From Balanoglossus misakiensis (Eukaryota > Animalia > Hemichordata): a DNA stretch of 64,000 nt. Shown here one piece after another: positions 8,094 through 59,403 of the stretch. The notes beneath the pieces are model-generated. The model made no database searches. It saw nothing but the letters and a program-made list of their open reading frames with translations, and was not told the DNA's origin. The stretch lies in contig CM082597.2 in NCBI GenBank assembly GCA_040954595.2, positions 6,473,849-6,537,848 on the forward strand, read 5' to 3'. How positions within the stretch are numbered: the stretch's first letter is position 1; every line of letters begins with the position of its first letter. Both the position numbers and the translations under genes were made by a program.

Positions 8094-8120
8094 CAGTTGA
8101 TACATTGAGATGTGACACTT

Positions 8121-10082
8121 TCACTGTGCAAAGACTTTGAGGCAGTCGTTGCCCCAGTCAGCAACCACTACTTCCATGTCATCTGTCACAGCGACACCTC
8201 GTGGGCTATCTAACCCATCCTCAGCTTTATCAATGCGACAGATGAATTTACCTCTGTTGTCAAATTTCTGCACATTCTTGTTTTTCTTGTCACAGACATA
8301 CAGATATCCTGCTTTATCAGCCACTATTCCTTTTGGCCAATAAAGCTTACCATCACCTTCACCAAATTCTCCAAATGCAAACATGAACTCACCATCTGCA
8401 TTATATGCTTGAATGCGATTGTTGTTCATGTCTGATACAAACACTACTCCACAAGTGTCAACAGTCAAGAACTCAGGCCCTTGAAGCTGTCCCTGTCCTG
8501 TGCCAAAACTCCCAAATGATTTGATGTACTGACAATCATGTGTGTATTTCCTGATGCAGTGACCCTCTTTGTCTGTGTCAGCCACCTTTCCATCCCAATC
8601 ACTCACATACACACTTCCATCTACAGGACTAATAGCAATTCGGGAGGGATTCTTGACTTCTTTCCCAAAGCATTTGATCAGAGACCCGTTCTCATCACTC
8701 ACAACTATTTGTTTGTTATCCCAGTCTGACATGAAGTATTCATCATCAGCTGATATTGCAACATCGTATGGTGTGAAAGGCTGTACAAACTGAGTGAATG
8801 TGAAACTTGATTTGTGATTCCCATCCCTGTCAGTGATTTGTACTCTTCTGTTACCAGCATCAGCAGTGACAAAGTTTCCGTGTCTGTTAATACTGACACC
8901 TAGAGGGCAATTGAACTGGCCACTTTTATTACCTTTACATCCAATGGTCTTCACCAAGCCTTTCTTTGTCTCTACTGACACTGAATCTTCACGAAGCAAT
9001 CCCAGCATTCCTCCATCTTTGGTCTCCTCAGCTGGCTGGAATTTCACCATGTCCACAATGGCATCAATTTCTGTCTCCATGGCGATTATTTCCTCCATGT
9101 GATGTATTGTCTCCTGCTTGGTGGCCATGATCTGGGCTGGTGTCCCATGATGCATCAGTGTTTCTATGTAGCAGCGTTGGCTTGCAATGTTGCCATGTTT
9201 CAGTTCCCACTCATCTATTAGAGCCTCCGTCTGCTTTACTCTCTGTCCATATTTTGTCTGCAGCTCTTTAATCAACTGTTTCTCCTCCCTCTGTGCCTTC
9301 TGTATGACCTTTGCTGTTTTCTGTCTCACTTTCTGTTCTTCCTCCTGGCATTCGACCAACAGTGTCTCTCTCTTCAGTTTGGCCAGTGTTGTGCTTGTCT
9401 TTGCTCCCCATTCTTTTTCTGTCACCTTACACAGCAGATCTCTCAACTGTTTGGTGTAGTCATTTGCAGCATCTTGCAGATCTGTGTTGGTGTGTTTGGG
9501 ACTTGGATGTTTGGTAATAGCACAGTCTGTACACACAATAAGCTTACAGGTCTCACAGTAGAATTTCACCACATTTTCTGGATGGACACTGCAGAAGACT
9601 TTTTGTTGCTTCAGGAGAGTTGACCATTCTGTATTTTTGTATTCATCCAGTGTCATGACCTTGTGACCTTTCATAAATTTTCTGTGCGGTTTAGTGCAGG
9701 AATCACACATATTCACACTGCAGTCGATGCAATAGTGAGTTCCTTGGTTTTCATCACATCCGTTACACACAGAAGGCTTCGAGTCACTCTCTGTAGGACG
9801 CTTTTTCAGATAAAGATCAGTCAACGAGTTGATGAAAAAGTTGACTTTCAGTTCAGTCACACCCCCACCAGGAAGCTGACATGGCGTACTGCATGTTGGG
9901 CAGTTCAGCTTACCTTTCTTTGTCACCAGTGTTGTCAGACACGACTCACAGAATGAATGGTCACATGGCAAGACTTTGGGTTTCTTGAACAGTTCCAGAC
10001 AGATCGCACAGGAGAGGAAATCCTCACCAATCTCGTTCAGAACTTTGTCTAACTGGGAACCTCCAGGATATGCTGCAGCCAT
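8121..10082 (-). CDS. TRIM-NHL E3 ubiquitin ligase copy 1 (RING-B1-B2-CC-6xNHL), 653 aa
   Basis: Uninterrupted ORF. First ATG at 10082 in strong Kozak context (aagATGG). C3HC4 RING CAIC..LPCDHSFCESC..CPTC, B-box1 CNGC..CIDC..CDSC..H..H, B-box2 CSVH..CETC..CTDC..H..H, coiled coil, then six F-x-x-P-x-G/D-[IV] NHL repeats. Confidence 0.96.
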   Translation of the reverse strand: MAAAYPGGSQLDKVLNEIGEDFLSCAICLELFKKPKVLPCDHSFCESCLTTLVTKKGKLNCPTCSTPCQLPGGGVTELKVNFFINSLTDLYLKKRPTESDSKPSVCNGCDENQGTHYCIDCSVNMCDSCTKPHRKFMKGHKVMTLDEYKNTEWSTLLKQQKVFCSVHPENVVKFYCETCKLIVCTDCAITKHPSPKHTNTDLQDAANDYTKQLRDLLCKVTEKEWGAKTSTTLAKLKRETLLVECQEEEQKVRQKTAKVIQKAQREEKQLIKELQTKYGQRVKQTEALIDEWELKHGNIASQRCYIETLMHHGTPAQIMATKQETIHHMEEIIAMETEIDAIVDMVKFQPAEETKDGGMLGLLREDSVSVETKKGLVKTIGCKGNKSGQFNCPLGVSINRHGNFVTADAGNRRVQITDRDGNHKSSFTFTQFVQPFTPYDVAISADDEYFMSDWDNKQIVVSDENGSLIKCFGKEVKNPSRIAISPVDGSVYVSDWDGKVADTDKEGHCIRKYTHDCQYIKSFGSFGTGQGQLQGPEFLTVDTCGVVFVSDMNNNRIQAYNADGEFMFAFGEFGEGDGKLYWPKGIVADKAGYLYVCDKKNKNVQKFDNRGKFICRIDKAEDGLDSPRGVAVTDDMEVVVADWGNDCLKVFAQ

Positions 10083-10368
10083 CTTTGCAGCTCGAGTCAA
10101 AATGCTTGTAATCACATAGCAACACACTGTTCAGTATAGTGTCATTAATTTTGACTGAGTTATGGGGTTTATAAAAACTTGGCAAGCCACCAAAGTTATA
10201 TGATAAATTGAATTCAGTGATTCAGCAAATACCAGTGTACCAATGTAAACTTTGACCGGGTACAGTTGACAAATACCGATATATTGAACTGAAAGTGGGA
10301 CACATCATCACATTATACCAATGAACCGTCCCAGATTTCTTGGTATACTCATTAGACATTGTGAGCTG

Positions 10369-10576
10369 TTGGTCTCTTCTTGTATTTTCACAACTCTTTG
10401 CAAACATTCATTGCAAATTATTTGTCTCTTCTTGTATTTTCACAAATCTTTGCAAACATTCATTGCAAATTATTTGTCTCTTCTTGTATTTTCACAAATC
10501 TTTGCAAACATTCATTGCAAATTATTTGTCTCTTCTTGTATTTTCACAAATCTTTGCAAACATTCATTGCAAATTA
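10369..10576. repeat. 52-bp minisatellite, 4 copies
   Basis: Unit tttgtctcttcttgtattttcacaaatctttgcaaacattcattgcaaatta; 208 bp. Confidence 0.95.
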
Positions 10577-11288
10577 TAAACATACACATTATGTCTGCAT
10601 GAAAGTTCCATCTCTGGCAACCAATTTCCCGATACAGAATTTGTGTGATGAACCATATTTCATCCTGATGGATGGTATTATACCAATAGTGAAATGTGAA
10701 TTTTTTTCTTGAAGACAACTTGGTGACAACTAACAGTATTACTATAGCAACACTACAAAAATATCCGATCATATTATTATATTTTTTGCTGCTTGTATAT
10801 GAAATTAAGTTTCATTTCATTTGGCTTCAATTGCTAGATAAACAGTTTTTGATTAAACTGTCAGTCAGCAATTTCTATTCACATCTTATCTCGGCTAGTA
10901 CAGCTTTTTTAAAACTGGCTGGGGTGTTTAATCCACCCACAAGTTGAGGTCAAAAGTTCTGGAAGTAACACAATGGACAATTCTTTACACAAAGATAACA
11001 GTTGCAAACTTTGACAGAGAATGAAAGAGTTGGCCTATATTGCAGGTTACTGTGTGAGTCAGTGGCTGATTGTATGATACAGTCTGCACGATAACCCCTT
11101 GATTAGAGCGTGTCTGGTACCAGTGATTTGATTGGCTGTTATCAAGTTATTGGCATGTTCGTCATCGTCTGACAAACCATTATTAACATGGGTAGGGGCA
11201 AACTTTCACGTTTCAAAATCAATTATATTTTTTACATTGCGTGAACAGTTTCTATCATAAATTGATATTTTATGTAAACTTTATGCGC

Positions 11289-11650
11289 AAACTAATTATT
11301 TTCGCAATGATTTGCGAATGCTGACAACCTCTGTATGCATGTCAACCCATGCGCTTAATTTTGCCTACCCTTCACACAAATGGTTTACACTTCTGCCAAA
11401 TTCATGTCAACACGAAGTGACCGGCACAGAGTGTGAATGAAAATAGATAGGGCGAATTTCAAAGAATGTAAACTAATTATTTTCGCAATGATTTGCGAAT
11501 GCTGACAACCTCTGTACGCATATCAACCCATGCGCTTAATTTTGCCTACCCTTCACACAAATGGTTTACACTTCTGCCAAATTCATGTCAACACGAAGTG
11601 TCCGGCACAGAGTGTGAATGAAAATAGATAGGGCCAATTTCAAGGATTGT
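11289..11650. repeat. 181-bp tandem repeat, 2 copies
   Basis: aaactaattattttcgcaatg starts at 11289 and 11470. Confidence 0.92.
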
Positions 11651-12111
11651 TGTCCTCTCACTGACCCACTTTCAGAAAAAAAAAATTATTTTTTTTTCTT
11701 CTATTTGGCGTGGTCTTGCCATGAATTGAAAGAAATGACTGTGAACCAGATTTGAATAGGTTCCTCAAATAACCACCATATACATACATACTGAATTGTT
11801 AGAACATGTAATATTTATCTTCAATGGTTTACATGGAACACCATAGATATGACACCAAGACAATTATCTATCAAAACTAATTAACTTTCCAATGAAGAAA
11901 AACGAATGGACAGAAAATAAAACGCTGAGTAGAAGCTAGCCTAGACAAAAATGCCTACTTTGTAACCGCGCGCACTTGTCGATCGATCATATACAACAGC
12001 GGCTGTGAACCCTGTTGTGACTGGTTCTGGAGGCTCAGATAAAAAACACGGCCCTAACACGCAGAGTTACGACTGATCTGTTATTAAAAACATGCATTGC
12101 CAGACGTTTAC

Positions 12112-12480
12112 CTCTAAATTCCACCCGAACTAAAGTACAATTAGCTAAGAACACCGAGGAGATACTTCCGTATTAGTCTGCCTCACATGAATGAGCAAAT
12201 GATTTGCCGTAGACAGACCCTCATTATGCATGACCTGCCAGCCTTTCAACCAATAGACGCAGCTCTGTGGTATCACATGACATTATTATTGAGTTAATCT
12301 GCACACGTGAGAATTACCCGCCATGTCACCAGACTTGACTTTTACGCCCATTTTTTTTAGCATATTGGAGCATATCTGCCAATGCAAACTTTAAGGGGAG
12401 TGACAAATGACATGCTGCATTCAATAAAATAAAACTGGATTGGACAATGCGGCGCTAAATGCTCACATGACCGAAATCCG
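12112..12480 (-). promoter_or_regulatory. Candidate promoter and non-coding first exon of TRIM-NHL copy 1
   Basis: Locally CpG-rich. Minus-strand donor GAG|GTAAAC at 12112/12111, ETS-like ACGGAAGT at 12164-12171, CCAAT at 12250, TCATGTGA M-boxes at 12183, 12273 and 12463, CACGTG at 12304. The same layout recurs, with donors at 20827, 30669, 42888, 53507 and 61217. Confidence 0.45.
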
Positions 12481-15168
12481 GCGTGTGTCAATCAATGGTT
12501 TTCTATGCATGTCTTCAAACTCACGTGTTTCAAAACAAAATCTGGGTAGGTGGCAAACCGAGAGAGTTGCATTTTGAAGCTGAAAGATCCCTGGAGTCAA
12601 CCATGTCTGGGTGTAGGGGTTTGCACTCTCCTAATAGCTCATACGATCGAATAAAATGGACTCTAAAATAATAGCATTTTCTATCGTTTTCCTCATATTT
12701 ATATTATACTACGGGCACATCTTACCATTTGACTTTACAATTGACTATTTTGGAATGAAAGGTAATATCAGAAGGGCATATTTTTCATACAAGATTGCCG
12801 ATATTTTTTTAGACCAAAAAGTACAACATATCAAAGAGAGGCCTGTAAATCCCGCGGAAAATGCACTCTCTATTTGGTCATGCGGTGAGGACTCCTACGG
12901 AACGGGCAGCATCATAGGACCCGCTTACCGGGACAGTTCATGACTTCCCGAACACGATAGTTGCAGCTTTTTTTTGCACAGAGTTGACGCCAATCCTGCT
13001 AAATCCCCCCACAAATGCTCCACCTCCAGAAATCAAATGGTTCTCCCCTTATATCTGCAACCCCAGCAAGGGAATTTCAATTTTTGTCCTTTGGATTGAA
13101 GGTTCAATTGACTCAAGTAATTGCAAAATACAATCACAGTCACTCCACAAAGATGTATAGCGTTAATTCTCTAGAACTCCAACTTTCAAGTATTAACTGG
13201 GGTTTCTTATAAAAATATAAACATATGAAACGTAATAGAATTATGAAAACCTGTTTATTCACCACATGGGTTGTGCACAACAAATGTATCAGCTGTTAGT
13301 CCACACAAACTAAACATGATTACAGTGTATTCTTGGTTATTTAAAAAAAATACTGAATGATTTCACCAAAAATTGTGGTCCACTAACAAATTTATGTCAA
13401 GGCCACTGTTACCTGATAATAAACCCCTCATCAAGAAATCTACAGGAATTTAAATTGGTTACAAAAAAATGTTGCTAGCTGTTTGGTCGTAAATTAAAGT
13501 TAAGTGGTCCAATGTTCATGTGATAAGTACTGAAGTCGACAGAAACACTGTGTCTTGGTGATTACATTAACATACAATAGGTCTCAAATCAGTCAACCAA
13601 ATAACTCAGTAATGTTCATTGTCCAGATTTGTGAGTTATAAGTGTCTATCGATCGTCAACCAAATAATCAATAATTTGCACGTTTGTTGTCCAGATTATT
13701 TATGAGTTATAAGTGTATATCGTCAAAACGAAAGTCAAGAAAAATAAAGTGAATACAACACGTTACAAATAATGAATTCTATGATTTCCTGTAAAATGAC
13801 AAAAAGTTGTTGAAACAGGAAAATTTGATTAAAGTTCATGAAAGTAGAAAACCACTGATTACAGTCAACACATTACATGTAATCTCAAAAACTAAAGCTC
13901 AAAAACTAAAATGGATGAAAAAACAGTAGCTACACACATTAGGATCTGAAGAGGCTAAGTTGTTTTAACCCTTTCTCCACCATGGTTTGGTTTAACTCCA
14001 TTGTTCTCCAATGGCAGTGTTGGACCTTTACACAGTGAAATGGGGGTGAAAGGGTACTCTCAATTGTAGTAAAGAAAAACTGAAAACATATCTTGAAATT
14101 ATTTATCAACAGACATATTTATAACACTCAGCTATGAATTCATCATTCATCTAAGTGTGATAACATTGTTCCACAAAAAATAACATGGTGGAAAAGTTCA
14201 ATAAATGTAGTGGACTAAAAAACCACTGGTCCTGTTATAGAGCTGAATTCTACATGTTTCTTTAAAAACATTAGAAATAAAGAAAAATATTGTCTGTTTA
14301 CATCAAAATATTAAAGACTTAGTGGCATTGAATAAAACTGAAGATTGATGTCCAGAACTGACAGATACGAGTGAATGTTCGGATGTTTCTCAGTTGATCT
14401 GTTGTGACATAAAATTGTTGTGTTAAAGCCCCAGTAATGTTTATGTTTGGCTGTTTTTTCTGTATTTTTCTCTCATGCATCAAATCCAGTTTCTTGTTCT
14501 TCTCTGGAGAGCTTTATGAAAAGTTCATTTTTTAGCTTCTCAACAAATCCTGTATATGAGTAACAGCCACTGTTATTGTCGACAAATGAATTGATGTCCT
14601 GACTTTAATTCATATTTCAACAATAACAATGGTGATTACTACAAAATAACTGTGTTGAAAAACCAAAAAAACTGAGAAATTATTTATGTCTCACAGAGAA
14701 GAACAAGAAACCACAGTTCTAACTGAAAACAATAATATTGACAAGATAGCCCAAAGTTGGAAGTTACTGGGGTTTTAATTGTTTTGTGATACCTGTCCTG
14801 ATTTCGGTCTGACCCCAACTGGGTGTAGTCAGATTTGTGTCGGTGAAAAGTCACTGTAGATTTTTTGACTGACAAAAATTGTACAGTAACAAGGAGGTCA
14901 TGACATACTCAATAAACAACATGTTATCAGTGTCACCTTGGCAACAGTGGAATTGTTAGTTAACTGTTAATGTAGCAATTGGACAATAGATATACTTTGC
15001 TTTAATTATGAACCATGTAAAATGTTCACAATTTGTTATAGACAAAATGCAAAATTCATGATAACTTCATAGAAAGTACTGATATTTTTGTCAGTAAATT
15101 CTTTTTTTGCTGCCACTGTTGACTGTGACATGAAATACAGATTTTTTCAAAGATACTTTTAACCTTAA

Positions 15169-16651: not shown

Positions 16652-18610
16652 TCACTGTGCAAAGACTTTGAGGCAGTCGTTGCCCCAGTCAGCAACCACT
16701 ACATCCATGTCATCTGTCACAGCCAAACCTAGTGGGCGATCTAACCCATCCTCAGCTTTATCAATGTGACAGATGAATTTACCTCTGTTGTCAAATTTCT
16801 GCACATTCTTGTTTTTCTTGTCACAGACATACAGATATCCTGCTTTATCAGATACTATTCCTTGTGGCCAATAAAGCTTACCATCACCTTCACCAAATTC
16901 TCCAAATGCAAACATGAACTCACCATCTGCATTAAATGCTTGAATGCGATGGTTGTTCATGTCTGATACAAACACAACTCCACAACTGTCAACAGTCAAG
17001 AACTCAGGCCCTTTGAACTGTCCCTGTCCTGTGCTAAAACTCCCAAATGATTTGATGTACTGACAATCATGTGTGTATTTCCTGATGCAGTTACCCTCTT
17101 TGTCTGTGTCAGCACTGGCCTTTCCATCCCAATCACTCACATACACACTTCCATCTACAGGACTAATAGCAATGCGGTTGGGATTCTTGACTTCTTTCCC
17201 AAAGCATTTGATCAGAGACCCATTCTCATCACTCACAACTATTTGTTTGTTATCCCAATCTGTCATGAAGTATTCATCATCAGCTGATATTGCAACATCG
17301 ACGGGTTTGAAAGGCTGTGCAAACTGAGTGAATGTGAAACTTGATTTGTATTTCCCATCCCTGTCAGTGATTTGTACTCTGTTGTTACCTGCTTCAGCAG
17401 TGACAAAGTTTCTGTGTCTGTTAATACTGATACCATTAGGGTAATTGAACTGCCCACGTTTGTTACCTTTACATCCAATGGTCTTCACCAAGCCTTTCTT
17501 TGTCTCTACTGACACTGAATCTTCACGAAGCAATCCCAGCATTCCTCTATCTTTGGTCTCCTCAGCTGGCTGGAATTTCACCATGTCCACTCTGGCATCA
17601 ATTTCTGTCTCCATGGCGATAATTTCCTCCATGTGATGTATTGTCTCCTGCTTGGTGGCCATGATCTGGGCTGGTGTCCCATGATGCATCAGTGTCTCTA
17701 TGTAGCAGCGTTGGCTTGCAATGTTGCCATGTTTCAGTTCCCACTCATCTATTAGAGCCTCCGTCTGCTTTACTCTCTGTCCATATTTTGTCTGCAGCTC
17801 TTTAATCAACTGTTTCTCCTCCCTCTGTGCCTTCTGTATGACCTTTGCTGTTTTCTGTCTCACTTTCTGTTCTTCCTCCTGGCATTCGACCATCAGTGTC
17901 TCTCTCTTCAGTTTGGCCAGTGTTGTGCTTGTCTTTGCTCCCCATTCTTTTTCTGTCACCTGACACAACAGATCTCTCAACTGTTTGGTGTAGTCATTTG
18001 CAGCATCTTGGAGATCTCTGTTGGTGTGTTTCGGACTTGGATGTTTGGTAACAGCACAAGCCGTGCATGCAGAAACCATACAGGTCTCACAGTAGACTTC
18101 GACAACATTTTCTGGATGGACACTGCAGAAGACTTTTTGTTGCTTCAGGAGAGTTGACGATTTTGTGTTGTTGTATTCGTCTAGTGTCATGACCTTGTGA
18201 CCTCTCAGAAACTTCTGGTGTGATTTTGTGCAGGAAGTGCATAGCCTTTCACTGCAGTCAATACATTGGTGAGATGCTGCATGTGCTGCACAGACACTGC
18301 ACATAGACTTGGCCTGTCCTTCGGGACCTTGTCTCTGATAAAGATCGACCAATGAGTTGATGAAAAAGTTACCTTTCAATTGAGGCACTCCACCAGCAGG
18401 AAGTTTACATACCTCACGGCATGTCGGACACTTCAACCGAGCTTTTCCTTTCACCAACTTTGTCAGACACGGCTCACAGAATGAATGGTTACATGGCAAG
18501 ACTTTGGGTTTCTTGAACAGTTCCAGACAGATCGCACAGGAGAGGAAATTCTCACCAATCTCGTTCAGAACTTTGTCTAACTCGGAACCTCCAGGATATG
18601 CTGCAGCCAT
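16652..18610 (-). CDS. TRIM-NHL copy 2, 652 aa, with a divergent RING/B-box1 segment
   Basis: Intact ORF with the same architecture. ATG at 18610. Confidence 0.96.
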   Translation of the reverse strand: MAAAYPGGSELDKVLNEIGENFLSCAICLELFKKPKVLPCNHSFCEPCLTKLVKGKARLKCPTCREVCKLPAGGVPQLKGNFFINSLVDLYQRQGPEGQAKSMCSVCAAHAASHQCIDCSERLCTSCTKSHQKFLRGHKVMTLDEYNNTKSSTLLKQQKVFCSVHPENVVEVYCETCMVSACTACAVTKHPSPKHTNRDLQDAANDYTKQLRDLLCQVTEKEWGAKTSTTLAKLKRETLMVECQEEEQKVRQKTAKVIQKAQREEKQLIKELQTKYGQRVKQTEALIDEWELKHGNIASQRCYIETLMHHGTPAQIMATKQETIHHMEEIIAMETEIDARVDMVKFQPAEETKDRGMLGLLREDSVSVETKKGLVKTIGCKGNKRGQFNYPNGISINRHRNFVTAEAGNNRVQITDRDGKYKSSFTFTQFAQPFKPVDVAISADDEYFMTDWDNKQIVVSDENGSLIKCFGKEVKNPNRIAISPVDGSVYVSDWDGKASADTDKEGNCIRKYTHDCQYIKSFGSFSTGQGQFKGPEFLTVDSCGVVFVSDMNNHRIQAFNADGEFMFAFGEFGEGDGKLYWPQGIVSDKAGYLYVCDKKNKNVQKFDNRGKFICHIDKAEDGLDRPLGLAVTDDMDVVVADWGNDCLKVFAQ

Positions 18611-18971: not shown

Positions 18972-19283
18972 TTTGTCTCTTCTTGTATTTTCACAAATCT
19001 TTGCAAACATTCATTGCAAATTATTTGTCTCTTCTTGTATTTTCACAAATCTTTGCAAATATTCATTGCAAATTATTTGTCTCTTCTTGTATTTTCACAA
19101 ATCTTTGCAAACATTCATTGCAAATTATTTGTCTCTTCTTGTATTTTCACAAATCTTTGCAAACATTCATTGCAAATTATTTGTCTCTTCTTGTATTTTC
19201 ACAAATCTTTGCAAACATTCATTGCAAATTATTTGTCTCTTCTTGTATTTTCACAAATCTTTGCAAACATTCATTGCAAATTA
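18972..19283. repeat. 52-bp minisatellite, 6 copies
   Basis: 312 bp = 6 x 52. Confidence 0.95.
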
Positions 19284-20003
19284 TGAACATACATGTACAC
19301 ATTATGTCTGCATGAAAGTTCCATCTCTGGCAACCAATTTCCCAATACAGAATTTGTGTGAGGAACCATATTTCATCCTGATAGATGGTATTATACCAAT
19401 AGTGAAATTTGATTTTTTTTTCTTGAAGAGAACTTGGTGGCAACTGACAGTGTTACTATAGCAACACTACAAAAACATCAGATCATATTATTATATTTTT
19501 TGCTGCTTGTATATGAAATTAAGTTTCATTTCATTTGGCATCAATTGCTAGATAAACAGTTTTTTATTAAACTGTTAGTCAGCAATTTCTATTCACTTCT
19601 TATCTCGGCTAGTACAGCTGTTTTTAAACTGGCTGGGGTGTTGAATCCACCCACAAGTTGAGGTCAAAAGTTCTGGAAGTATAAACACAATGGACAATTC
19701 TTTACACAAAGATAACAGTTGCAAACTTTGACAGAGAATGAAAGAGTTGGCCTATATTGCAGGTTACTGTGTGAGCACTGGCTGATTGTATGATACAGTC
19801 TGCACGATAATCCCTCGATTAGGGCGTGTCTGGTACCAGTGATTTGATTGGCTGTTATCGAGTTATTGGCATGTTCGTCATCGTCTGACAAACCATTTTT
19901 TACATGAGTAGGGGCAAACTTTCACGTTTCAAAATCAATTATTTGTTTTACATCGCGTGAACAGATTCTATCATAAATTGCTTTTTTTGTTAACTTTATG
20001 CGC

Positions 20004-25982: not shown

Positions 25983-27944
25983 TCACTGTGCAAAGACTTT
26001 GAGGCAGTGATTGCCCCAGTCAGCAACCACTACTTCCATGTCATCTGTCACAGCTACACCAGTTGGGCGATCTAACCCATCCTCAGCTTTATCAATGCGA
26101 CAGATGAATTTACCTCTGTTGTCAAATTTCTGCACATTCTTGTTTTTCTGATCACTGACATACAGATATCCTGCTTTATCAGCCACTATTCCTGTTGGCC
26201 AATAAAGCTTACCATCACCTTCACCAAATTCTCCAAATGCAAACATGAACTCACCATCTGCATTAAATGCTTGAATGCGTTTGTTGTTCATGTCTGATAC
26301 AAACAATACTCCACAACTGTCAACAGTCAAGAACTCAGGCCCTCTAAGCTGTCCCAGTCCCCTGCCCAAACTCCCAAATGATTTGATGTACTGACAATCG
26401 TGTGTGTATTTCCTGATGCAGTGACCCTCTTTGTCTGTGAGAGAATCATCACCCTTTCCATCCCAATCACTCACATACACACTTCCATCTACAGGACTAA
26501 TAGCAAGGCGGTAGGGATTCTTGACTTCTTTCCCAAAGCATTTGATCAGAGACCCATTCTCATCACTCACAACTATTTGTTTGTTATCCCAGTCTGTCAT
26601 GAAGTATTCATCATCAGCTGATATTGAAACATCGCGTGGTGTGAAAGGCTGTGCAAACTGAGTGAATGTGAAACTTGATTTGTAATTCCCATCCCTGTCA
26701 GTGATTTGTACTCTGTTGTTACCACGATCAGCAGTGACAAAGTTTCTGTGTCTGTTGATACTGACACCTAGAGGGCGATTGAACTGCCCACCTTCGTTAC
26801 CTCGACACCCAATGGTCTTCACCAAGCCTTTCTTTGTCTCTACTGACACTGAATCTTCACGAAGCAATCCCAGCATTCCTCCATCTTTGGTCTCCTCAGC
26901 TGGCTGGAATTTCACCACGTTCACTCTGGCATCAATTTCTGTCTCCATGGAAATAATGTCCTCCATGTGATGTATTGTCTCCTGCTTGGTGGCCAGGATC
27001 TGGGCTGGTGTCCCATGATGCATCAGTGTCTCTATGTAGCAGCGTTGGCTTGCAATGTTGCCATGTTTCAGTTCCCACTGATCTATTAGAGCCTCCGTCT
27101 GCTTTACTCTCTGTCCATATTTTGTCTGCAGCTCTTCAATCAACTGTTTCTCCTCCCTCTGTGCCTTCTGTATGACCTTTGCTGTTTTCTGTCTCACTTT
27201 CTGTTCTTCCTCCTGGCATTCGACCAACAGTGTCTCTCTCTTCAGTTTGGCCAGTGTTGTGCTTGTCTTTGCTCCCCATTCTTTTTCTGTCACCTGACAC
27301 AGCAGATCTCTCAACTGTTTGGTGTAGTCATTTGCAGCATCTTGGAGATCTGTGTTGGTGTGTTTGTTGTGTTTGGTAACAGCACAAGCCGTGCATGCAG
27401 AAACCATACAGGTCTCACAGTAGAATTTCACAACATTTTCTGGATGGACACTGCAGAAGACTTTTTGTTGCTTCAGGAGAGTTGACGATTCTGTATTTTT
27501 GTATTCATCCAGTGTCATGACCTTATGACCTTTCATAAATTTTCTGTGCGGTTTAGTGCAGGAATCACACATATTCACACTGCAGTCGATGCAATAGTGA
27601 GTTCCTTCGTTTTCCTCACAGCCGTTACACACAGAAGGCTTTGAGTCACTCTCTGTAGGACGCTTTTTCAGATAAAGATCTGTCAACGAGTTGATGAAAA
27701 AGTTGACTTTCAGTTCAGTCACACCCCCACCAGGAAGCTGACATGGCGTACTGCATGTTGGGCAGTTCAGCTTACCTTTCTTTGTCACCAGTGTTGTCAG
27801 ACACGACTCACAGAATGAATGGTCACATGGCAAGACTTTGGGTTTCTTGAACAGTTCCAGACAGATCGCACAGGAGAGGAAATCCTCACCAAGCTCGTTC
27901 AGAACTTTGTCTAACTCGGAACCTCCAGGATATGCTGCAGCCAT
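25983..27944 (-). CDS. TRIM-NHL copy 3, 653 aa
   Basis: Intact ORF, RING-B1-B2-CC-6xNHL. ATG at 27944. Confidence 0.96.
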   Translation of the reverse strand: MAAAYPGGSELDKVLNELGEDFLSCAICLELFKKPKVLPCDHSFCESCLTTLVTKKGKLNCPTCSTPCQLPGGGVTELKVNFFINSLTDLYLKKRPTESDSKPSVCNGCEENEGTHYCIDCSVNMCDSCTKPHRKFMKGHKVMTLDEYKNTESSTLLKQQKVFCSVHPENVVKFYCETCMVSACTACAVTKHNKHTNTDLQDAANDYTKQLRDLLCQVTEKEWGAKTSTTLAKLKRETLLVECQEEEQKVRQKTAKVIQKAQREEKQLIEELQTKYGQRVKQTEALIDQWELKHGNIASQRCYIETLMHHGTPAQILATKQETIHHMEDIISMETEIDARVNVVKFQPAEETKDGGMLGLLREDSVSVETKKGLVKTIGCRGNEGGQFNRPLGVSINRHRNFVTADRGNNRVQITDRDGNYKSSFTFTQFAQPFTPRDVSISADDEYFMTDWDNKQIVVSDENGSLIKCFGKEVKNPYRLAISPVDGSVYVSDWDGKGDDSLTDKEGHCIRKYTHDCQYIKSFGSLGRGLGQLRGPEFLTVDSCGVLFVSDMNNKRIQAFNADGEFMFAFGEFGEGDGKLYWPTGIVADKAGYLYVSDQKNKNVQKFDNRGKFICRIDKAEDGLDRPTGVAVTDDMEVVVADWGNHCLKVFAQ

Positions 27945-28305: not shown

Positions 28306-28773
28306 TTTGTCTCTTCTTGTTTTTTCACAAATCTTTGCAAATATTCATTGCAAATTATTTGTCTCTTCTTGTATTTTCACAAATCTTTGCAAACATTCAT
28401 TGCATATTATTTGTCTCTTCTTGTATTTTCACAAATCTTTGCAAACATTCACTGCAAATTATTTGTCTCTTCTTGTATTTTCACAAGTCTTTGCAAACAT
28501 TCATTGCAAATTATTTGTCTCTCCTTGTATTTTCACAAGTCTTTGCAAACATTCATTGCAAATTATTTGTCTCTCCTTGTATTTTCACAAATCTTTGCAA
28601 ACATTCATTGCATATTATTTGTCTCTTCTTGTATTTTCACAAGTCTTTGCAAACATTCATTGCAAATTATTTGTCTCTCCTTGTATTTTCACAAGTCTTT
28701 GCAAACATTCATTGCAAATTATTTGTCTCTCCTTGTATTTTCACAAATCTTTGCAAACATTCATTGCAAATTA
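28306..28773. repeat. 52-bp minisatellite, 9 copies
   Basis: 468 bp = 9 x 52, with private variants (ctcc, caagt, gcatatt). Confidence 0.95.
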
Positions 28774-29487
28774 TAGACATACACATTATGTCTGCATGAA
28801 AGTTCCATCTCTGGCAACCAATTTCCCAATACAGAATTTGTGTGAGGAACCATATTTCATCCTGACAGATGGTATTATACCAATAGTGAAATTAGAATTT
28901 TTTTTCTTGAATACAACTTGGTGGCAACTGACAGTGTTACTATAGCAACACTACAAAAACATCAGATCATATTATTATATTTTTTGCTGCTTGTATATGA
29001 AATTAAGTTTCATTTCATTTGGCTTCAATTGCTAGATAAACAGTTTTTGATTTAACTGTCAGTCAGCAATTTCTATTCACTTATTATCTCGCCTAGTACA
29101 GCTTTTTAAAAACTGGCTGGGGTGTTGAATCCACCCACAAGTTGAGGTCAAAAGTTCTGGAAGTAACACAATGGCCAATTCTTGACACAAAGATAACAGT
29201 TGCAAACTTTGACAGAGAATGAAAGAGTTGTCCTATATCGTAGGTTACTGTGTGAGTCAGTGGCTGATTGTATGATACAGTCTGCACGATAACCCCTCGA
29301 TTAGGGCGTGTCTCGTACCAGTGATTTGATTGGCTGTTATCGAGTTATTGGCATGTTCGTCATCGTCTGACAAACCATTTTCTACATGAGTAGGGGCAAA
29401 CTTTCACGTTTCAAAATCCATTACTTTTTTTACATTGCGTGAACAGTTTCTATCATAAATTGATATTTTTTTGTGAACTTTATGCGC

Positions 29488-31587: not shown

Positions 31588-31596
31588 AATAGTAAT

Positions 31597-37701: not shown

Positions 37702-39663
37702 TCACTGTGCAAAGACTTTGAGGCAGTCGTTGCCCCAGTCAGCAACCACTACTTCCATGTCATCTGTCACAGCCACACCACTTGGCTCATTTAACCCATC
37801 CTCAGCTTTATCAATGCGACAGATGAATTTACCTCTGTTGTCAAATTTCTGCACATTCTTGTTTCCCTTGATACAGACATACAGATATCCTGCTTTATCA
37901 GCCACTATTCCTTCTGGCCAATAAAGCTTACCATCACCTTCACCAACATCTCCAAATGCAAACAGGAACTCACCATCTGCATTAAATGCTTGAATGCGAT
38001 TGTTGTTCATGTCTGATACAAACACTACTCCACAACTGTCAACAGTCAAGAAGTCCGGCCCTCTGAACTGTCCCTGTCCTGTGCCAAAACTACCAAATGA
38101 TTTGATGTACTGACAATCATGTGACGTGTATTTCCTGATGCAGTGACCCTCTTTGTCTGTGTCAGCATTGGCCTTTCCATCCCAATCACTCACATACACA
38201 CTTCCATCTACAGGACTAATAGCAAGGCGGGCAGGATTCTTGACTTCTTTCCCAAAGCATTTGATCAGAGACCCATTCTCATCACTCACAACTATTTGTT
38301 TGTTATACTTATCTGTCATGAAGTATTCATCATCAGCTGATATTGCGACATCGAAGGGTGTGAAAGGCTGTGCAAACTGAGTGAATGTGAAACTTGATTT
38401 GTATTTCCCATCCCTGTCAGTGATTTGTACTCTTTTGTTACCAGCATCAGTGGTGACAAAGTTTCTGTGTCTGTTAATACTGATACCTTCAGGGCCATTG
38501 AACTGCCCACCTTTGTTACCTTGACATCCAATGGTCTTCACCAAGCCTTTCTTTGTCTCTACTGACACTGAATCTTCACGAAGCAATCCCACTATTCCTC
38601 CATCTTTGGTCTCCTCAGCTGGCTGGAATTTCACGATGTCCACTTTGGCATCAATTTCTGTCTCCATGGAGATAATTTCCTCCATGTGATGTATTGTCTC
38701 CTGCTTGGTGGCCATGATCTGGGCTGGTGTCCCATGATGCATCAGTGTCTCTATGTAGCAGCGTTGGCTTGCAATGTTGCCATGTTTCAGTTCCCACTCA
38801 TCTATTAGAGCCTCCGTCTGCTTTACTCTCTGTCCATATTTTGTCTGCAGCTCTTTAATCAACTGTTTCTCCTCCCTCTGTGCCTTCTGTATGACCTTTG
38901 CTGTTTTCTGTCTCACTTTCTGTTCTTCCTCCTGGCATTCGACCATCAGTTTCTGTCTCATCAGTTTGGCATCTGTTTTGCTTCTCTCTGCTCCCAGTTC
39001 TTTTTCGGTCACCTGACACAGCAGATCTCTCAACTGTTTGGTGTAGTCATTTGCAGCATCTTGCAGATCTGTGTTGGTGTGTTTGTTGTGTTTGGTAACA
39101 GCACAAGCCGTGCATGCAGAAACCATACAGGTCTCACAGTAGACTTCCACCACATTTTCAGGATGGACACTGCAGAAGACTTTTTGTTGCTTCAGGAGAG
39201 TTGACGATTCTGTATTTTTGTATTCATCCAGTGTCATGACCTTGTGACCTTTCATAAATTTTCTGTGCGGTTTAGTGCAGGAATCACACATATTCACACT
39301 GCAGTCGATGCAATAGTGAGTTCCATCATTTTCCTCGCATCCGTTGCACACAGAAGGCTTTGAGTCACTCTCTGTTGGACGCTTTTTCAGATAAAGATCT
39401 GTCAACGAGTTGATGAAAAAGTTGACTTTCAGTTCAGTCACACCCCCACCAGGAAGCTGACATGGCGTACTGCATGTTGGGCAGTTCAGCTTACCTTTCT
39501 TTGTCACCAGTGTTGTCAGACACGACTCACAGAATGAATGGTCACATGGCAAGACTTTGGGTTTCTTGAACAGTTCCAGACAGATCGCACAGGAGAGGAA
39601 ATCCTCACCAAGCTCGTTCAGAACTTTGTCTAACTCGGAACCTCCAGGATATGCTGCAGCCAT
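37702..39663 (-). CDS. TRIM-NHL copy 4, 653 aa
   Basis: Intact ORF with the same architecture. ATG at 39663. Confidence 0.96.
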   Translation of the reverse strand: MAAAYPGGSELDKVLNELGEDFLSCAICLELFKKPKVLPCDHSFCESCLTTLVTKKGKLNCPTCSTPCQLPGGGVTELKVNFFINSLTDLYLKKRPTESDSKPSVCNGCEENDGTHYCIDCSVNMCDSCTKPHRKFMKGHKVMTLDEYKNTESSTLLKQQKVFCSVHPENVVEVYCETCMVSACTACAVTKHNKHTNTDLQDAANDYTKQLRDLLCQVTEKELGAERSKTDAKLMRQKLMVECQEEEQKVRQKTAKVIQKAQREEKQLIKELQTKYGQRVKQTEALIDEWELKHGNIASQRCYIETLMHHGTPAQIMATKQETIHHMEEIISMETEIDAKVDIVKFQPAEETKDGGIVGLLREDSVSVETKKGLVKTIGCQGNKGGQFNGPEGISINRHRNFVTTDAGNKRVQITDRDGKYKSSFTFTQFAQPFTPFDVAISADDEYFMTDKYNKQIVVSDENGSLIKCFGKEVKNPARLAISPVDGSVYVSDWDGKANADTDKEGHCIRKYTSHDCQYIKSFGSFGTGQGQFRGPDFLTVDSCGVVFVSDMNNNRIQAFNADGEFLFAFGDVGEGDGKLYWPEGIVADKAGYLYVCIKGNKNVQKFDNRGKFICRIDKAEDGLNEPSGVAVTDDMEVVVADWGNDCLKVFAQ

Positions 39664-40020
39664 CTTTGCAGCTCGAGTCAAAATGCTTGTAATCACATAG
39701 CAACACACTGTTCAGTATAGTGTCATTAATTTTGACTGAGTTATGGGGTTTATAAAAACTTGGCAAGCCACCAAAGTCACATGATAAAATTGAATTCAGT
39801 GATTCAGCAAATACCAGGGTCTACCTAGTACCGGCTGAGTACCTGAGAGTTGAGGTCAAAAGGTCAAACTTGAACACAATGAATCACTGAGAAGAGAATG
39901 AATGTAAACTTTGAACGAGTACAGTTGACAAATACCGATATATTGAACTGAAAGTAGGACATGTCATCACATTATACCACCGTCCCAAATTTCTTGGTAC
40001 TCATTAGACATTGTGATCTG

Positions 40021-41164
40021 TTTGTCTCTTCTTGTATTTTCACAAATCTTTGCAAACATTCATTGCATATTATTTGTCTCTTCTTGTATTTTCACAAATC
40101 TTTGCAAACATTCATTGCAAATAATTTGTCTCTTCTTGTATTTTCACAAATCTGTGCAAACATTCATTGCAAATTATTTGTCTCTTCTTGTATTTTCACA
40201 AATCTGTGCAAACATTCATTGCAAATTATTTGTCTCTTCTTGTATTTTCACAAATCTTTGCAAACATTCATTGCAAATTATTTGTCTCTTCTTGTATTTT
40301 CACAAATCTTTGCAAACATTCATTGCAAATTATTTGTCTCTTCTTGTATTTTCACAAATCTTTGCAAACATTCATTGCAAATTATTTGTCTCTTCTTGTA
40401 TTTTCACAAATCTTTGCAAACAATCATGGCAAATTATTTGTCTCTTCTTGTATTTTCACAAATCTTTGCAAACATTCATTGCAAATTATTTGTCTCTTCT
40501 TGTATTTTCACAAATCTTTGCAAACATTCATTGCAAATTATTTGTCTCTTCTTGTATTTTCACAAATCTTTGCAAACATTCATTGCAAATTATTTGTCTC
40601 TTCTTGTATTTTCACAAATCTTTGCAAACATTCATTGCAAATTATTTGTCTCTTCTTGTATTTTCACAAATCTTTGCAAACATTCATTGCAAATTATTTG
40701 TCTCTTCTTGTATTTTCACAAATCTTTGCAAACAATCATGGCAAATTATTTGTCTCTTCTTGTATTTTCACAAATCTTTGCAAACATTCATTGCAAATTA
40801 TTTGTCTCTTCTTGTATTTTCACAAATCTTTGCAAACATTCATTGCAAATTATTTGTCTCTTCTTGTATTTTCACAAATCTTTGCAAACATTCATTGCAA
40901 ATTATTTGTCTCTTCTTGTATTTTCACAAATCTTTGCAAACATTCATTGCAAATTATTTGTCTCTTCTTGTATTTTCACAAATCTTTGCAAACATTCATT
41001 GCAAATTATTTGTCTCTTCTTGTATTTTCACAAATCTTTGCAAACATTCATTGCAAATTATTTGTCTCTTCTTGTATTTTCACAAATCTTTGCAAACATT
41101 CATTGCAAATTATTTGTCTCTTCTTGTATTTTCACAAATCTTTGCAAACATTCATTGCAAATTA
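40021..41164. repeat. 52-bp minisatellite, 22 copies
   Basis: 1144 bp = 22 x 52. Confidence 0.96.
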
Positions 41165-42072
41165 TAAACATACACATTGTGTCTGCATGAAAGTTCCATC
41201 TTTGGCAACCAATTTCCCAATACAGAATTTGTGTGAGGAACCATATTTCATCCTGATGGAAGATATTATACCAATAGTGAAATGTGAATTTTTTTTCTTG
41301 ATAACAACTTGGTGGCAACTGACAGTGTTACCATAGCAACACTACAAAAACATCAGACCATATTATTTTTTTTGCTGCTTGTATATGAAATTAAGTTTCA
41401 TTTCATTTGGCTTCATTTCCTAGATAAACAGTTTTTGATTTAACTGTCAGTCAGCAATTTCTATTCACTTCTTATCTCGGCTAGTACAGCTGTTTTTAAA
41501 CTGGCTGGGGTGTTGAATCCACCCACAAGTTGAGGTCAAAAGTTCTGGAAGTAACACAATGGACAATTCTTTACACAAAGATAACAGTTGCAAACTTTGA
41601 CAGAGAATGAAAGAGTCGGCCTATATTGCAGGTTACTGTGTGAGTCAGTGGCTGATTGTATGATAACAATTCTTTCTACACTTTGTGTGGAATAAATCTG
41701 TTGTATTGCTTCTTAGGGGAGATTAACCATTTGATTTCTGGGGGTGGGGATTTGGTATGCCAGCAAATTTGTTTTGTTCACAGTTAGAACAATTACATTG
41801 TATTAGGACCCATATCATGTATATTGCATGTTACTGTGTGAGTCAGTGGCTGATTGTATGATACAGTCTGCACGATAACCCCTCGATTAGGGCGTGTCTG
41901 GTACCAGTGATTTGATTGGCTGTTATCGAGTTATTGGCATGTTCGTCATAGTCTGACAAACCATTTTTTACATGAGTAGGGGCAAACTTTCACGCGTCAA
42001 AATCAATTATTTTTTTTACATTGCGTGAACAGTTTCTATCATAAATTGATATTTTTTGTAAACTTTATGCGC

Positions 42073-51274: not shown

Positions 51275-51430
51275 TTTGTCTCTTCTTGTATTTTGACAAA
51301 TCTTTGCAAACATTCATTGCAAATTATTTGTCTCTTCTTGTATTTTCACAAATTATTGCAAACATTCATTGCAAATTATTTGTCTCTTCTTGTATTTTCA
51401 CAAATTATTGCAAATATCCATTGCTAATTA
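51275..51430. repeat. 52-bp minisatellite, 3 copies
   Basis: 156 bp = 3 x 52. Confidence 0.93.
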
Positions 51431-52146
51431 TAAATATACACATTATGTCTGCATGAAAGTTCCATCTCTAGCAACCAATTTCCCAATTCAGAATTTGTGT
51501 GAGGAACCATATTTCATCATGATGGATGGTATTATACCAATAGTGAAATGTGAATTTTTTTTCTTGAAGACAACTTGGTGGCAACTGACAGTGTTACCAT
51601 AGCAACACTACAAAAACATCAGACCATACTATTATATTTTTTGCTGCTTGTATATGAAATTAAGTTTCATTTCATTTGGCTTTATTTGCTAGATAAACAG
51701 TTTTTGATTTAACTATCAGTCAGCAATTTCTATTCACTTCTTATCTCGGCTAGTACAGCTGTTTTTAAACTGACTGGGGTGTTGAATCCACCCACAAGTT
51801 GAGGTCAAAAGTTCTGGAAGTAACACAATGGACAATTCTTTACACAAAGATAACAGTTGCAAACTTTGACAGAGAATGAAAGAGTTGGCCTATATTGCAG
51901 GTTACTGTGTGAGTCAGTGGCTGATTGTATGATACAGTCTGCACGATAACCCCTCGATTAGGGCGTGTCTCGTACCAGTGATTTGATTGGCTGTTATCGA
52001 GTTATTGGCATGTTCGTCATCGTCTGACAAACCATTTTTTTTACATGAGTAGGGGCAAACTTTTTACGTTTCAAAATCAATTATTTTTTTTACATTGCGT
52101 GAACAGTTTCTATCATAAATTGATATTTTTTGTAAACTTTATGCGC

Positions 52147-56000: not shown

Positions 56001-57447
56001 CTGGGGTTTTAATTGTTTTGTGATATCTGTCCTGATTTCGGTCTGACCCCAACTGGGTGTAGTCAGATTTGTGTCGGTGAAAAGTCACTGTAGATTTTTT
56101 GACTGACAAAAATTGTACAGTAACAAGGAGGTCATGACATACTCAATAAACGACATGTTATCAGTGTCACCTTGGCAACAGTGGAATTGTTAGTTAACTG
56201 TTAATGTAGCAATTGGACAATAGATATACTTTGCTTTAATTATGAACCATGTAAAATGTTCACAATTTGTTATAGACAAAATGCAAAATTCATGATAACT
56301 TCATAGAAAGTACTGATATTTTTGTCAGTAAATTCTTTTTTTGCTGCCACTGTTGACTGTGACATGAAATACAGATTTTTTCAAAGATACTTTTAACCTT
56401 AAAAAAACACACCACAAAACTATTTAAAAATTGTGTAATCTTGGTTATACTCAGAACCCAAAATTCAAAGTCTCTATCTGTAGTTCAATTAAAAAAATAT
56501 CAGCTGATGTGAATACTGCATGATTTGCATGTCCCCCTTTGGAAAGATTTGTCATGTCAGGAAAAAAACTACAATTTGCTGCCATCTTTCCAATCGGGCT
56601 GACATGGACACAAGTGGGTAAAACATTTCCTCCTTCAAATCTGGGGGTTCTCTCATAAGAATCAAAGAGATGTCTCTTTTGGGAGAAATCTGTCTATCCC
56701 AACAGAAATGTCAACTCTAGTTGTGAGAGTGTTGTATGCACATGGTCTCTGCAGAAGAATAGGAACCTCAGGCAACCAGTTTGCCGTCATAAGTCATTCT
56801 ACAGTTGGTTTCATGTGCGTGACTTCAGATGCAATCTGAAGTTGAGCGCTACATTAGTCATCATCTCAAGTTTTTTTGTGACAGCAAGTGTCTGTTTGTT
56901 TTGTTGTTGTTTGTATCAACTGCAGTTTGTTGTTGAAACCCCTACAGCATATGATGAAATGTTCAGCCTATATGTGTACAGATAGCATTATTATTGCTGA
57001 AAATTGAATTGAATTCAATTCCTTGATCAACAATAATAATGATGCACATGTCTAGGTTCTTTCAACAAACTGAACAGTGGTCATTATAGTGTGGAATAAG
57101 AACTAAAGTTCATATTTACAGACAGAAATACTGAAAACAAAACAAATAGTGGGCCTTAATCTACAAACCAATGTGGCATATATGCATCCAGGTTCTGCCA
57201 TCACCTTCACATGTAAGCCTTATTTTAGTGAAATACACAGTCAAAAAATCTGTCTAAACCAAACTCAGTCTGATCGGGAAACCTGTGTATACTGAACACT
57301 CTTTCCAGTGCCCTTCACATAAAACCACATGTTGAAAGACCCTCTGTAAACCAGACACCTCTGCAAAGTGAACAATATTCTCACTCCCATTGGTGTCTGG
57401 TTTATAGACAGGTTTCACTACAGTTGATACATTGAGATGTGACACTT

Positions 57448-59403
57448 TCACTGTGCAAAGACTTTGAGGCAGTGATTGCCCCAGTCAGCAACCACTACTT
57501 CCATGTCATCTGTCACAGCTACACCAGATGGGCGATCTAACCCATCCTCAGCTTTATCAATGCGACAGATAAATTTACCTTTGTTGTCAAATTTCTGCAC
57601 ATTGTTGTTTTTCTTGTCACAGACATACAGATATCCTGCTTTATCAGCCACTATTCCTTCTGGCCAATAAAGCTCACCTTCACCAAATTCTCCAAATGCA
57701 AACATGAACTCACCATCTGCATTAAATGCTTGAATGCGATTGTTGTTCATGTCTGATACAAACACTACTCCGCAACCGTCAACAGTCAAGAACTGAGGCC
57801 CTCTGAACTGTCCCTGTCCTGTGCCAAAACTCCCAAATGATTTGATGTACTGACAATCACGTGTGTATTTCCTGATGCAGTGACCCTCTTTGTCTGTAAG
57901 GGAATAATCGGCCACTCCATCCCAATCACTCACATACACACTTCCATCTACAGGACTAATAGCAATTCGGGAGGGATTCTTGACTTCTTTCCCAAAGTAT
58001 TTGATCAGAGACCCATTCTCATCACTCACAACTATTTGTGTGTTATCCCAGTCTGTCATGAAGTATTCATCATCAGCTGATATTGCAACATCAATGGGTG
58101 TGAAAGGCTGTGCAAACTGAGTGAATGTGAAACTTGATTTGTGATTCCCATCCCTGTCAGTGATTTGTACTCTCTTGTTACCAGCATCAGCAGTGACAAA
58201 GTTTCTGTGTCTGTTAATACTGATACCTTTAGGGCCATAGAACTGGCCACCTTTGTTACCTTGACATCCAATGGTCTTCACCAAGCCTTTCTTTGTCTCT
58301 ACTGACACTGAATCTTCACGAAGCATTCCCAGCATTCCTCCATCTTTGGTCTCCTCAGCTGGCTGGAATTTCACCATGTTCACTCTGGCATCAATTTCTG
58401 TCTCCATGGCGATTATTTCCTCCATGTGATGTATTGTCTCCTGCTTGGTGGCCATGATCTGGGCTGGTGTCCCATGATGCATCAGTGTTTCTATGTAGCA
58501 GCGTTGGCTTGCAATGTTGCCATGTTTCAGTTCCCACTCATCTATTAGAGCCTCCGTCTGCTTTACTCTCTGTCCATATTTTGTCTGCAGCTCTTTAATC
58601 AACTGTTTCTCCTCCCTCTGTGCCTTCTGTATGACCTTTGCTGTTTTCTGTCTCACTTTCTGTTCTTCCTCCTGGCATTCGACCATCAGTGTCTCTCTCT
58701 TCAGTTTGGCCAGTGTTGTGCTTGTCTTTGCTCCCCATTCTTTTTCTGTCACCTTACACAGCAGATCTCTCAACTGTTTGGTGTAGTCATTTGCAGCATC
58801 TTGCAGATCTGTGTTGGTGTGTTTGTTGTGTTTGGTAACAGCACAAGCCGTGCATGCAGAAACCATACAGGTCTCACAGTAGACTTCGACAACATTTTCA
58901 GGATGGACACTGCAGAAGACTTTTTGTTGCTTCAGGAGAATTGACCATTCTGTATTTTTGTATTCATCCAGTGTCATGACCTTGTGACCTTTCATAAATT
59001 TTCTGTGCGGTTTAGTGCAGGAATCACACATATTCACACTGCAGTCCATGCAATAGTGAGTTCCATCGTTTTCTTCACATCCGTTGCACACAGAAGGCTT
59101 TGAGTCACTCTCTGTAGGACGCTTTTTCAGATAAAGATCGGTCAACGAGTTGATGAAAAAGTTGACTTTCAGTTCAGTCACACCCCCACCAGGAAGCTGA
59201 CATGGCGTACTGCATGTTGGGCAGTTCAGCTTACCTTTCTTTGTCACCAGTGTTGTCAGACACGACTCACAGAATGAATGGTCACATGGCAAGACTTTGG
59301 GTTTCTTGAACAGTTCCAGACAGATCGCACAGGAGAGGAAATCCTCACCAAGCTCGTTCAGAACTTTGTCTAACTCGGAACCTCCAGGATATGCTGCAGC
59401 CAT
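57448..59403 (-). CDS. TRIM-NHL copy 6, 651 aa
   Basis: Intact ORF. ATG at 59403. In-frame indels in NHL loops (DWDGVADYSLTD; GEGELYW). Confidence 0.96.
   Translation of the reverse strand: MAAAYPGGSELDKVLNELGEDFLSCAICLELFKKPKVLPCDHSFCESCLTTLVTKKGKLNCPTCSTPCQLPGGGVTELKVNFFINSLTDLYLKKRPTESDSKPSVCNGCEENDGTHYCMDCSVNMCDSCTKPHRKFMKGHKVMTLDEYKNTEWSILLKQQKVFCSVHPENVVEVYCETCMVSACTACAVTKHNKHTNTDLQDAANDYTKQLRDLLCKVTEKEWGAKTSTTLAKLKRETLMVECQEEEQKVRQKTAKVIQKAQREEKQLIKELQTKYGQRVKQTEALIDEWELKHGNIASQRCYIETLMHHGTPAQIMATKQETIHHMEEIIAMETEIDARVNMVKFQPAEETKDGGMLGMLREDSVSVETKKGLVKTIGCQGNKGGQFYGPKGISINRHRNFVTADAGNKRVQITDRDGNHKSSFTFTQFAQPFTPIDVAISADDEYFMTDWDNTQIVVSDENGSLIKYFGKEVKNPSRIAISPVDGSVYVSDWDGVADYSLTDKEGHCIRKYTRDCQYIKSFGSFGTGQGQFRGPQFLTVDGCGVVFVSDMNNNRIQAFNADGEFMFAFGEFGEGELYWPEGIVADKAGYLYVCDKKNNNVQKFDNKGKFICRIDKAEDGLDRPSGVAVTDDMEVVVADWGNHCLKVFAQ

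Follow-up and report, generated by a model that had tools for sequence, protein, structure and literature searches.

A young tandem TRIM-NHL array in the acorn worm Balanoglossus misakiensis with a diversifying propeller face, a likely repertoire of intracellular sensors

Introduction

Why should tandem copies of one gene, almost identical over long stretches, differ again and again at the same few positions of a single domain? The question is raised by an array of TRIM-NHL genes in a 64,000-nucleotide stretch of the hemichordate Balanoglossus misakiensis (GenBank assembly GCA_040954595.2, contig CM082597.2, positions 6,473,849 to 6,537,848 of the forward strand; hereafter the window). The original prediction for this locus was of a repertoire of E3 ligases whose NHL propellers carry hypervariable residues on the ligand-binding face, plausibly recognizing pathogen proteins or RNA. 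Our reading, to which we give a probability of roughly 0.6, is that this is a young tandem array in which the top face of the propeller is under diversifying selection, and that it likely constitutes a repertoire of intracellular sensors.

Results

Variable positions in six paralogs

The window holds six intact TRIM-NHL open reading frames (ORFs), all on the minus strand, of 650-653 amino acids (aa) and with one coding exon each:

8121..10082, minus strand: TRIM-NHL copy 1, 653 aa; RING at residues 25-64, two B-boxes, coiled coil and six-bladed NHL from about residue 376
8901, 8766, 8643, 8472, 8331 and 8199, minus strand: codons following the conserved blade prolines (post-Pro codons) of copy 1
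16652..18610, minus strand: copy 2, 652 aa; the sole copy of the six with a RING linchpin Arg
25983..27944, minus strand: copy 3, 653 aa
37702..39663, minus strand: copy 4, 653 aa
48960..50912, minus strand: copy 5, 650 aa
57448..59403, minus strand: copy 6, 651 aa

Copies 2-6 align with copy 1 at 86-92% identity, as expected of the near-identical paralogs that had been described, and every variable residue listed in the original prediction proved correct in our alignment columns. Across copies 1-6, the post-Pro residue reads L/N/L/E/H/K in blade 1 (column 394, with C/Y/R/G/G/G at column 392), Y/V/R/F/S/I in blade 2 (column 439), S/N/Y/A/A/S in blade 3 (column 480), E/E/E/D/E/Q in blade 4 (column 540), K/Q/T/E/I/E in blade 5 (column 587) and R/L/T/S/Q/S in blade 6 (column 631). 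The variants reported for the D-x-x-N loops were equally accurate (columns 409-410, 454-455, 555-556 and 602-603). At codon positions 1 and 2 of the six post-Pro codons, 62% of comparisons differ, against 4.8% in spacer DNA. An insert in the b-c loop of blade 3, on the top face (columns 497-507; about 8570-8600 in copy 1), varies in both length and sequence among the six copies; it is present in only about half of the family, with variation resembling that of the third complementarity-determining region (CDR3) of antibodies.

Selection at the post-Pro codons

Whatever the tree, at least 23 replacements are needed to explain the six post-Pro codons, where the NHL-wide silent rate predicts 3.5 and the local silent rate 6.3; in 200,000 random draws of six codons, a count of 23 was never attained. 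This class of codons had been chosen after the data were seen; the permutation result holds after correction for about 45 blade positions. The ratio of replacement to silent rates (dN/dS, or omega) for the whole NHL domain is 0.79, so the effect of selection is site-specific. Codon models were fitted to the six sequences with our own implementation of the GY94 site models. For the NHL domain, twice the log-likelihood difference (2dL) was 74 between M1a and M2a (omega 14 at 4.7% of codons) and 73 between M8a and M8, and the site models overall gave an omega of 14-20 at about 5% of codons. Allowing each blade a separate tree gave a 2dL of 74.5, against 6.5 for the RING-to-coiled-coil half, and none of 34 recombining neutral simulations reached the observed 75, their maximum being 39. 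Furthermore, in a fixed-site test that granted the post-Pro codons their own silent rate (21.8, near the 16.7 found elsewhere), omega was 15.8 (p=0.004).

Location of the changes on the propeller

AlphaFold2 (AF2) predicted an NHL model of 24 strands with a predicted local distance difference test score (pLDDT) of 96.9, for which Foldseek returned template modelling (TM) scores of 0.88-0.91 to the NHL domains of TRIM2/3 and also matches to LIN41 and Brat. With propeller faces assigned by strand order, the top-face elements would account for 79 of the 107 minimal NHL replacements and the bottom loops for 8 (p=4e-8), the remainder being in strands or unassigned ends; on this model, the variable residues do gather on one face of the propeller, as had been anticipated.

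Ten residues of LIN41 tested for RNA contact are described in the available text of PMC5908797, and on the TRIM71 sequence they fall into four position classes, Pro-1 (four residues), Pro+1 (one), Asp+1 (two) and Asp+2 (three). The 24 array positions of these classes carry 41 of the 107 changes and include all 8 codons with a posterior above 0.9, which upholds the proposed overlap with the ligand-binding positions of LIN41/TRIM71. Taken jointly, the 24 sites gave an omega of 3.4 (p=0.012); the post-Pro class is the sole class robustly under positive selection in the array. The same NHL face is described, in the accessible part of PMC9634614, as the interface of human TRIM-NHL proteins with diverse partners.

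By hand mapping, the ten LIN41 RNA contacts are identical in 1, 1, 3, 1, 1 and 1 instances in copies 1-6, and the net charge of the top face is 0, +1, +2, -3, -2 and -2. Because this face is neutral to acidic, where a LIN41/TRIM71-type stem-loop binder would be basic, and because only 1-3 of the 10 contacts are kept, LIN41-type RNA binding by the array NHL domains appears unlikely from their sequence, and the suggestion of RNA recognition of that type is weakened.

Recurrence in other acorn worms

Among the matches listed, 77 of 120 homologs are TRIM-like proteins, their names assigned automatically, from Ptychodera, Glandiceps and Saccoglossus. Most acorn-worm relatives among these matches contain a filamin domain; the closest homolog among them, at 63% identity, is also without it. 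The family alignment comprised 66 of the 77 acorn-worm homologs and 11 other rows. In a quick tree, which contains no vertebrate TRIM and in which the array rows fill only about 41% of the kept columns, 72 acorn-worm-type rows formed one clade against the 11 others (Shimodaira-Hasegawa-like approximate likelihood ratio test, SH-aLRT, 100). This clade is full of species-specific bursts; the six array copies group together within it, beside Ptychodera P0001, P0002 and P0009, which are likewise without filamin.

The pattern of variation seen in the array recurs across this family. The post-Pro columns stand at the 92nd-100th percentile of entropy across the 66 relatives. In 16 tight young paralog clades from Ptychodera, Glandiceps and Saccoglossus (47 of the 66 rows, compared at the amino-acid level), the 13 most-changing columns all fall within the four contact classes, the top 25 all lie on the top face, and the post-Pro positions change more than the bottom loops in 14 of the 16. 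This recurrence in three genera is independent of the way in which the post-Pro class was originally chosen.

Several relatives have features of their own. In Ptychodera flava, P0002 and P0009 carry a low-complexity insert of about 200 residues ahead of the NHL domain, and their post-Pro residues are mutually identical, unlike those of most clades. P0061 (P. flava, 1046 aa) has a death effector domain in place of the RING, followed by B-box, filamin and NHL; it matches at 50% identity over 43% of the query and lies outside the tree. When longer fusion relatives were sought, the 117 matches were mostly prokaryotic NHL proteins; they included one Ptychodera double-TRIM model and no new immune fusion. 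The Atlas listing, which we use as a lead only, includes comparable clusters of RING-B-box-NHL genes from echinoderms, chordates, molluscs and cnidarians.

The RefSeq models of this clade bear automatic names only ('TRIM2/3/45/71-like'). In the literature searched, which took in few subscription journals, we found no report of diversifying TRIM-NHL arrays and no description of this acorn-worm clade or its selection pattern; in the available text, hemichordates go unmentioned in Marin 2012 (PMC3503706), as does NHL in Simakov 2015 (PMC4729200) and in the Enchytraeus genome paper (PMC8460440).

Protein architecture and the RING linchpin

Pfam searches with copies 1, 2 and 4 identified RING (25-64), B-box and NHL domains and gave no match to a filamin domain. 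With the coiled coil called by sequence and position, the proteins have RING, B-box(es) and coiled coil in the order that defines TRIM (RBCC) proteins, and the six-bladed NHL propeller modelled at the C-terminus places them in the TRIM-NHL group (subfamily C / class VII), outside the TRIM2/3/71-type architecture, in which filamin precedes NHL.

All eight RING zinc ligands are invariant in the six copies. The residue after the last zinc-binding Cys, which we take to be the linchpin, is Ser in five of them and Arg in copy 2, so that five of the six depart from the Arg of a canonical active RING E3. The array RING is closest to those of TRIM56 and TRIM2, and the RINGs of TRIM2/3/56 have Arg at this position, as do 24 of 65 RINGs in the acorn-worm family alignment against 15 of 16 in other rows. 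The linchpin tunes ubiquitin transfer (PMC12326332), and TRIM8, with a non-Arg linchpin, is limited to UBE2N/K63 chains (PMC13769585), according to the available text of both papers. Since five of the six RINGs are without the linchpin Arg, a degradative E3 activity is uncertain on sequence grounds, and a weak or signalling-type ubiquitin output seems as plausible as degradation. The designation of these proteins as E3 ligases therefore calls for caution. In the mechanism we propose, the Ser linchpin would make the output more likely weak or of the UBE2N/K63 signalling type than strongly degradative, and copy 2 may have regained canonical activity.

Duplication units and gene conversion

The duplicated unit is the gene with its flanks, set head to tail with a start-to-start spacing of 8.5-11.7 kb. 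The left end of the array lies near 4600-5100, and a seventh unit begins at about 62100 and is cut by the window edge:

5096..14317, no strand assigned: one full duplication unit (3' flank, gene, and 5' flank with 52-bp and 181-bp repeats)
62113..64000, no strand assigned: 3' flank of the seventh unit, split by an inverted-repeat element at 63026-63760
18161..18490 (approximate), minus strand: imported tract in copy 2, RING to B-box 1
10372-10577, 18972-19284, 28306-28774, 40021-41165, 51275-51431 and 59765-59869: 52-bp minisatellites

Given the start of this seventh unit, the array likely continues past the window. The duplication of whole units, the seventh unit and the foreign RING/B-box tract in copy 2 had all been missed by the original prediction. 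Non-coding spacer diverges by 4.8% between unit 1 and the other units, and the first 1 kb 3' of the genes by 3.1% between units. An assembly artefact was ruled out, as the six copies differ throughout (3-5% in the flanks) and have distinct indels. In contigs from two DNA runs of one sample, the gene is covered by many short alternative pieces that include paralogs of about 85% identity; depth in these contigs is not copy number and their paths may be chimeric, so no allele counts were taken.

The imported tract of copy 2 differs from copy 3 at 89 of 330 nucleotides; elsewhere in the N-terminal half the difference is 21 of 783. The tract is a clear case of recombination and, to judge from its sequence, likely arose by gene conversion with a donor paralog that is not among the six. 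Copies 4 and 5 have a common short divergent tract in the coiled coil (about 38950-38997 in copy 4), and copy 1 also has a shorter divergent tract. Tested more generally through incompatibility between sites, the signal of recombination was weak (p=0.06 over all sites, 0.36 in NHL and 0.008 at silent sites). Divergence at four-fold sites is 0.021 in the coiled coil, 0.039 in NHL far from the variable sites and 0.125 near them. As silent divergence rises 2-3-fold next to the selected codons, and the coiled coil and flanks are more uniform than NHL, we propose a scheme in which unequal crossing-over would generate new copies and conversion would keep the scaffold uniform, with selection preserving the differences on the recognition face.

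The 52-bp minisatellite lies 290-360 bp upstream of each start codon in 2 to 22 copies, and the 181-bp repeat lies farther upstream in 1 to 5 copies; such variation in repeat number could tune the expression of individual paralogs. An ORF at 39961-41190 on the plus strand was rejected as a gene, since it is a read-through of the 52-bp repeat. Three short elements bounded by terminal inverted repeats, and resembling miniature inverted-repeat transposable elements (MITEs), were seen by eye at 905-1262, 4747-5098 and 63026-63760, the second lying at the left edge of the array. Finally, six calcium-binding-EGF-like exons of a plus-strand gene occupy 749-3888. Because the last of them ends in a GT donor and no later EGF exon follows in the window, the TRIM array may lie within an intron of that gene.

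Discussion

In the function that we propose for the array, the NHL face of each paralog would grip a different ligand, probably pathogen-derived and probably proteinaceous. By extension from TRIM biology, each coiled-coil dimer would display a pair of propellers, and the ligand would drive clustering through the B-boxes and so bring the RINGs together. We regard an immune function as probable, on the basis of analogy with the finTRIM and HNWD families, of birth-and-death evolution, and of the homolog P0061 with its death effector domain.

In the available text of PMC2657112, the finTRIMs are characterized as a clustered TRIM expansion specific to one lineage, in which the RING/B-box half is conserved and the C-terminal recognition domain is under positive selection. 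Like finTRIM, TRIM5 and TRIM22, the array is clustered, with a conserved N-terminal half and a selected C-terminal domain; unlike them, it has an NHL propeller for recognition in place of B30.2/SPRY, and its host is a non-vertebrate deuterostome. Induction by viruses has been shown for the finTRIMs. The array appears to share with immune-type TRIM proteins (TRIM5/finTRIM) a clustered expansion and, on the structural model, positive selection on the C-terminal face; having NHL and no B30.2/PRY-SPRY, it would work like this group without being a member of it. A second parallel is found in the HNWD genes of Podospora (het-d, het-e, het-R), in whose propellers a few positions per repeat are selected on the top face under concerted evolution (PMC2873952, available text). 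The array too has few selected top-face positions per blade. However, HNWD proteins have WD40 repeats, reshuffled inside one gene, on a NACHT/HET scaffold, whereas in the array it was whole genes that were duplicated, and their six blades are ancient and unlike one another. With its own subfamily C / class VII (TRIM2, TRIM3, TRIM71/LIN41, TRIM32, TRIM56, Brat), the array shares the order RING-B1-B2-CC-NHL (CC, coiled coil), an NHL fold at a TM of about 0.9 to TRIM2/3, and variation in the same top-face position classes; it differs in being multi-copy, fast-evolving and encoded in a single exon, without filamin, LIN41 RNA contacts or basic patch, and with a linchpin Ser in five of six copies.

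A number of observations weigh against the reading of the array as a selected repertoire of sensors. Most of the TRIM-NHL proteins that have been studied well regulate RNA in development. Motifs resembling the interferon-stimulated response element (ISRE) were not in excess (1 against 6.5 expected), nor were NF-kB-like motifs (2 against 2.2), both scanned for by consensus. The main text and PDF supplement of a Saccoglossus poly(I:C) study, gene tables excluded, do not name TRIM/NHL genes (PMC10210618). As to the selection tests, many of the 34 neutral recombining simulations pass the nominal threshold, so recombination inflates the test, and the principal result against our reading is that the likelihood ratio drops from 75 to 14.8 when codon-wise rate variation is allowed, an objection that the fixed-site test on the post-Pro codons meets in part. 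The proposed positive selection at all listed sites is upheld for the post-Pro codons and not for the 18 remaining class sites in the loops, which are not significant at local silent rates (p=0.20 and 0.54). Two of the 16 young clades show no post-Pro variation, and the models are self-implemented and rest on six sequences only.

Some of these points bear on whether there is positive selection at all. Tolerant loops combined with short conversion tracts from distant paralogs, or mutation hotspots, could mimic the signal: imported tracts are real, as copy 2 demonstrates, the DNA-run contigs reveal more distant paralogs, silent divergence is raised near the variable codons, and most of the gain in likelihood is taken up by the rate-variation model. 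We nevertheless consider this explanation very improbable and already largely refuted, since the bottom loops are equally exposed and yet have 8 changes against 79, the silent rate at post-Pro codons is close to that elsewhere while omega is 16, and random tracts would not fall on the same position in all six blades and in three other genera.

If selection is accepted, its agent has still to be weighed. An identical signature would be expected were the paralogs engaged in an internal arms race, with the products of transposons or other selfish elements as their targets in place of infectious pathogens and the germline as the probable setting. Roles in germline and small-RNA pathways are described, in the available text, for the TRIM-NHL proteins Mei-P26 and NHL-2, and the lack of excess immune promoter motifs fits this explanation too. 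We think it unlikely, however, because a neutral-to-acidic top face is poorly suited to RNA ligands, diversification affects the same sites in every acorn-worm genus sampled, and the homolog P0061 has a death-fold domain. That the copies diverged without conflict to regulate different host RNAs or proteins, in the manner of Brat, LIN41 and TRIM2/3, is quite improbable. NHL top faces are evolutionarily plastic among stable paralogs (PMC5908797 and PMC9634614, available text), but those paralogs are ancient and conserved across species, whereas the array shows near-saturated change among copies about 5% apart, repeated and species-specific, which is birth-and-death behaviour. Pathogen sensing by a diversified repertoire remains our preferred reading; the diversification pattern is real and replicated, and the immune function is unproven.

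A broader proposal, which we put forward tentatively and as little short of an even chance, is that acorn worms have turned the TRIM-NHL propeller, familiar chiefly as a reader of RNA in development, into a system of germline-encoded variable receptors, with dozens of genes per genome, 18-24 top-face residues for recognition, and RING swaps by conversion that tune the output. If true, a fixed ring of residues would be diversified in the way that antibody CDRs are, and the system would be an invertebrate-deuterostome counterpart of TRIM5/finTRIM on another fold; it may also take in the RING-B-box-NHL clusters that the Atlas listing shows for echinoderms, amphioxus and molluscs. The wider interest lies in how invertebrates, which lack adaptive immunity, diversify their intracellular recognition. 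Marine invertebrates have expanded TRIM-NHL families that usually stand under automatic TRIM2/71-like names, and the array gives them a testable function. Paralogs that are about 90% identical and differ at few defined residues are a natural mutagenesis panel for ligand discovery. The array further indicates that the NHL fold is usable as a scaffold for programmable binding.

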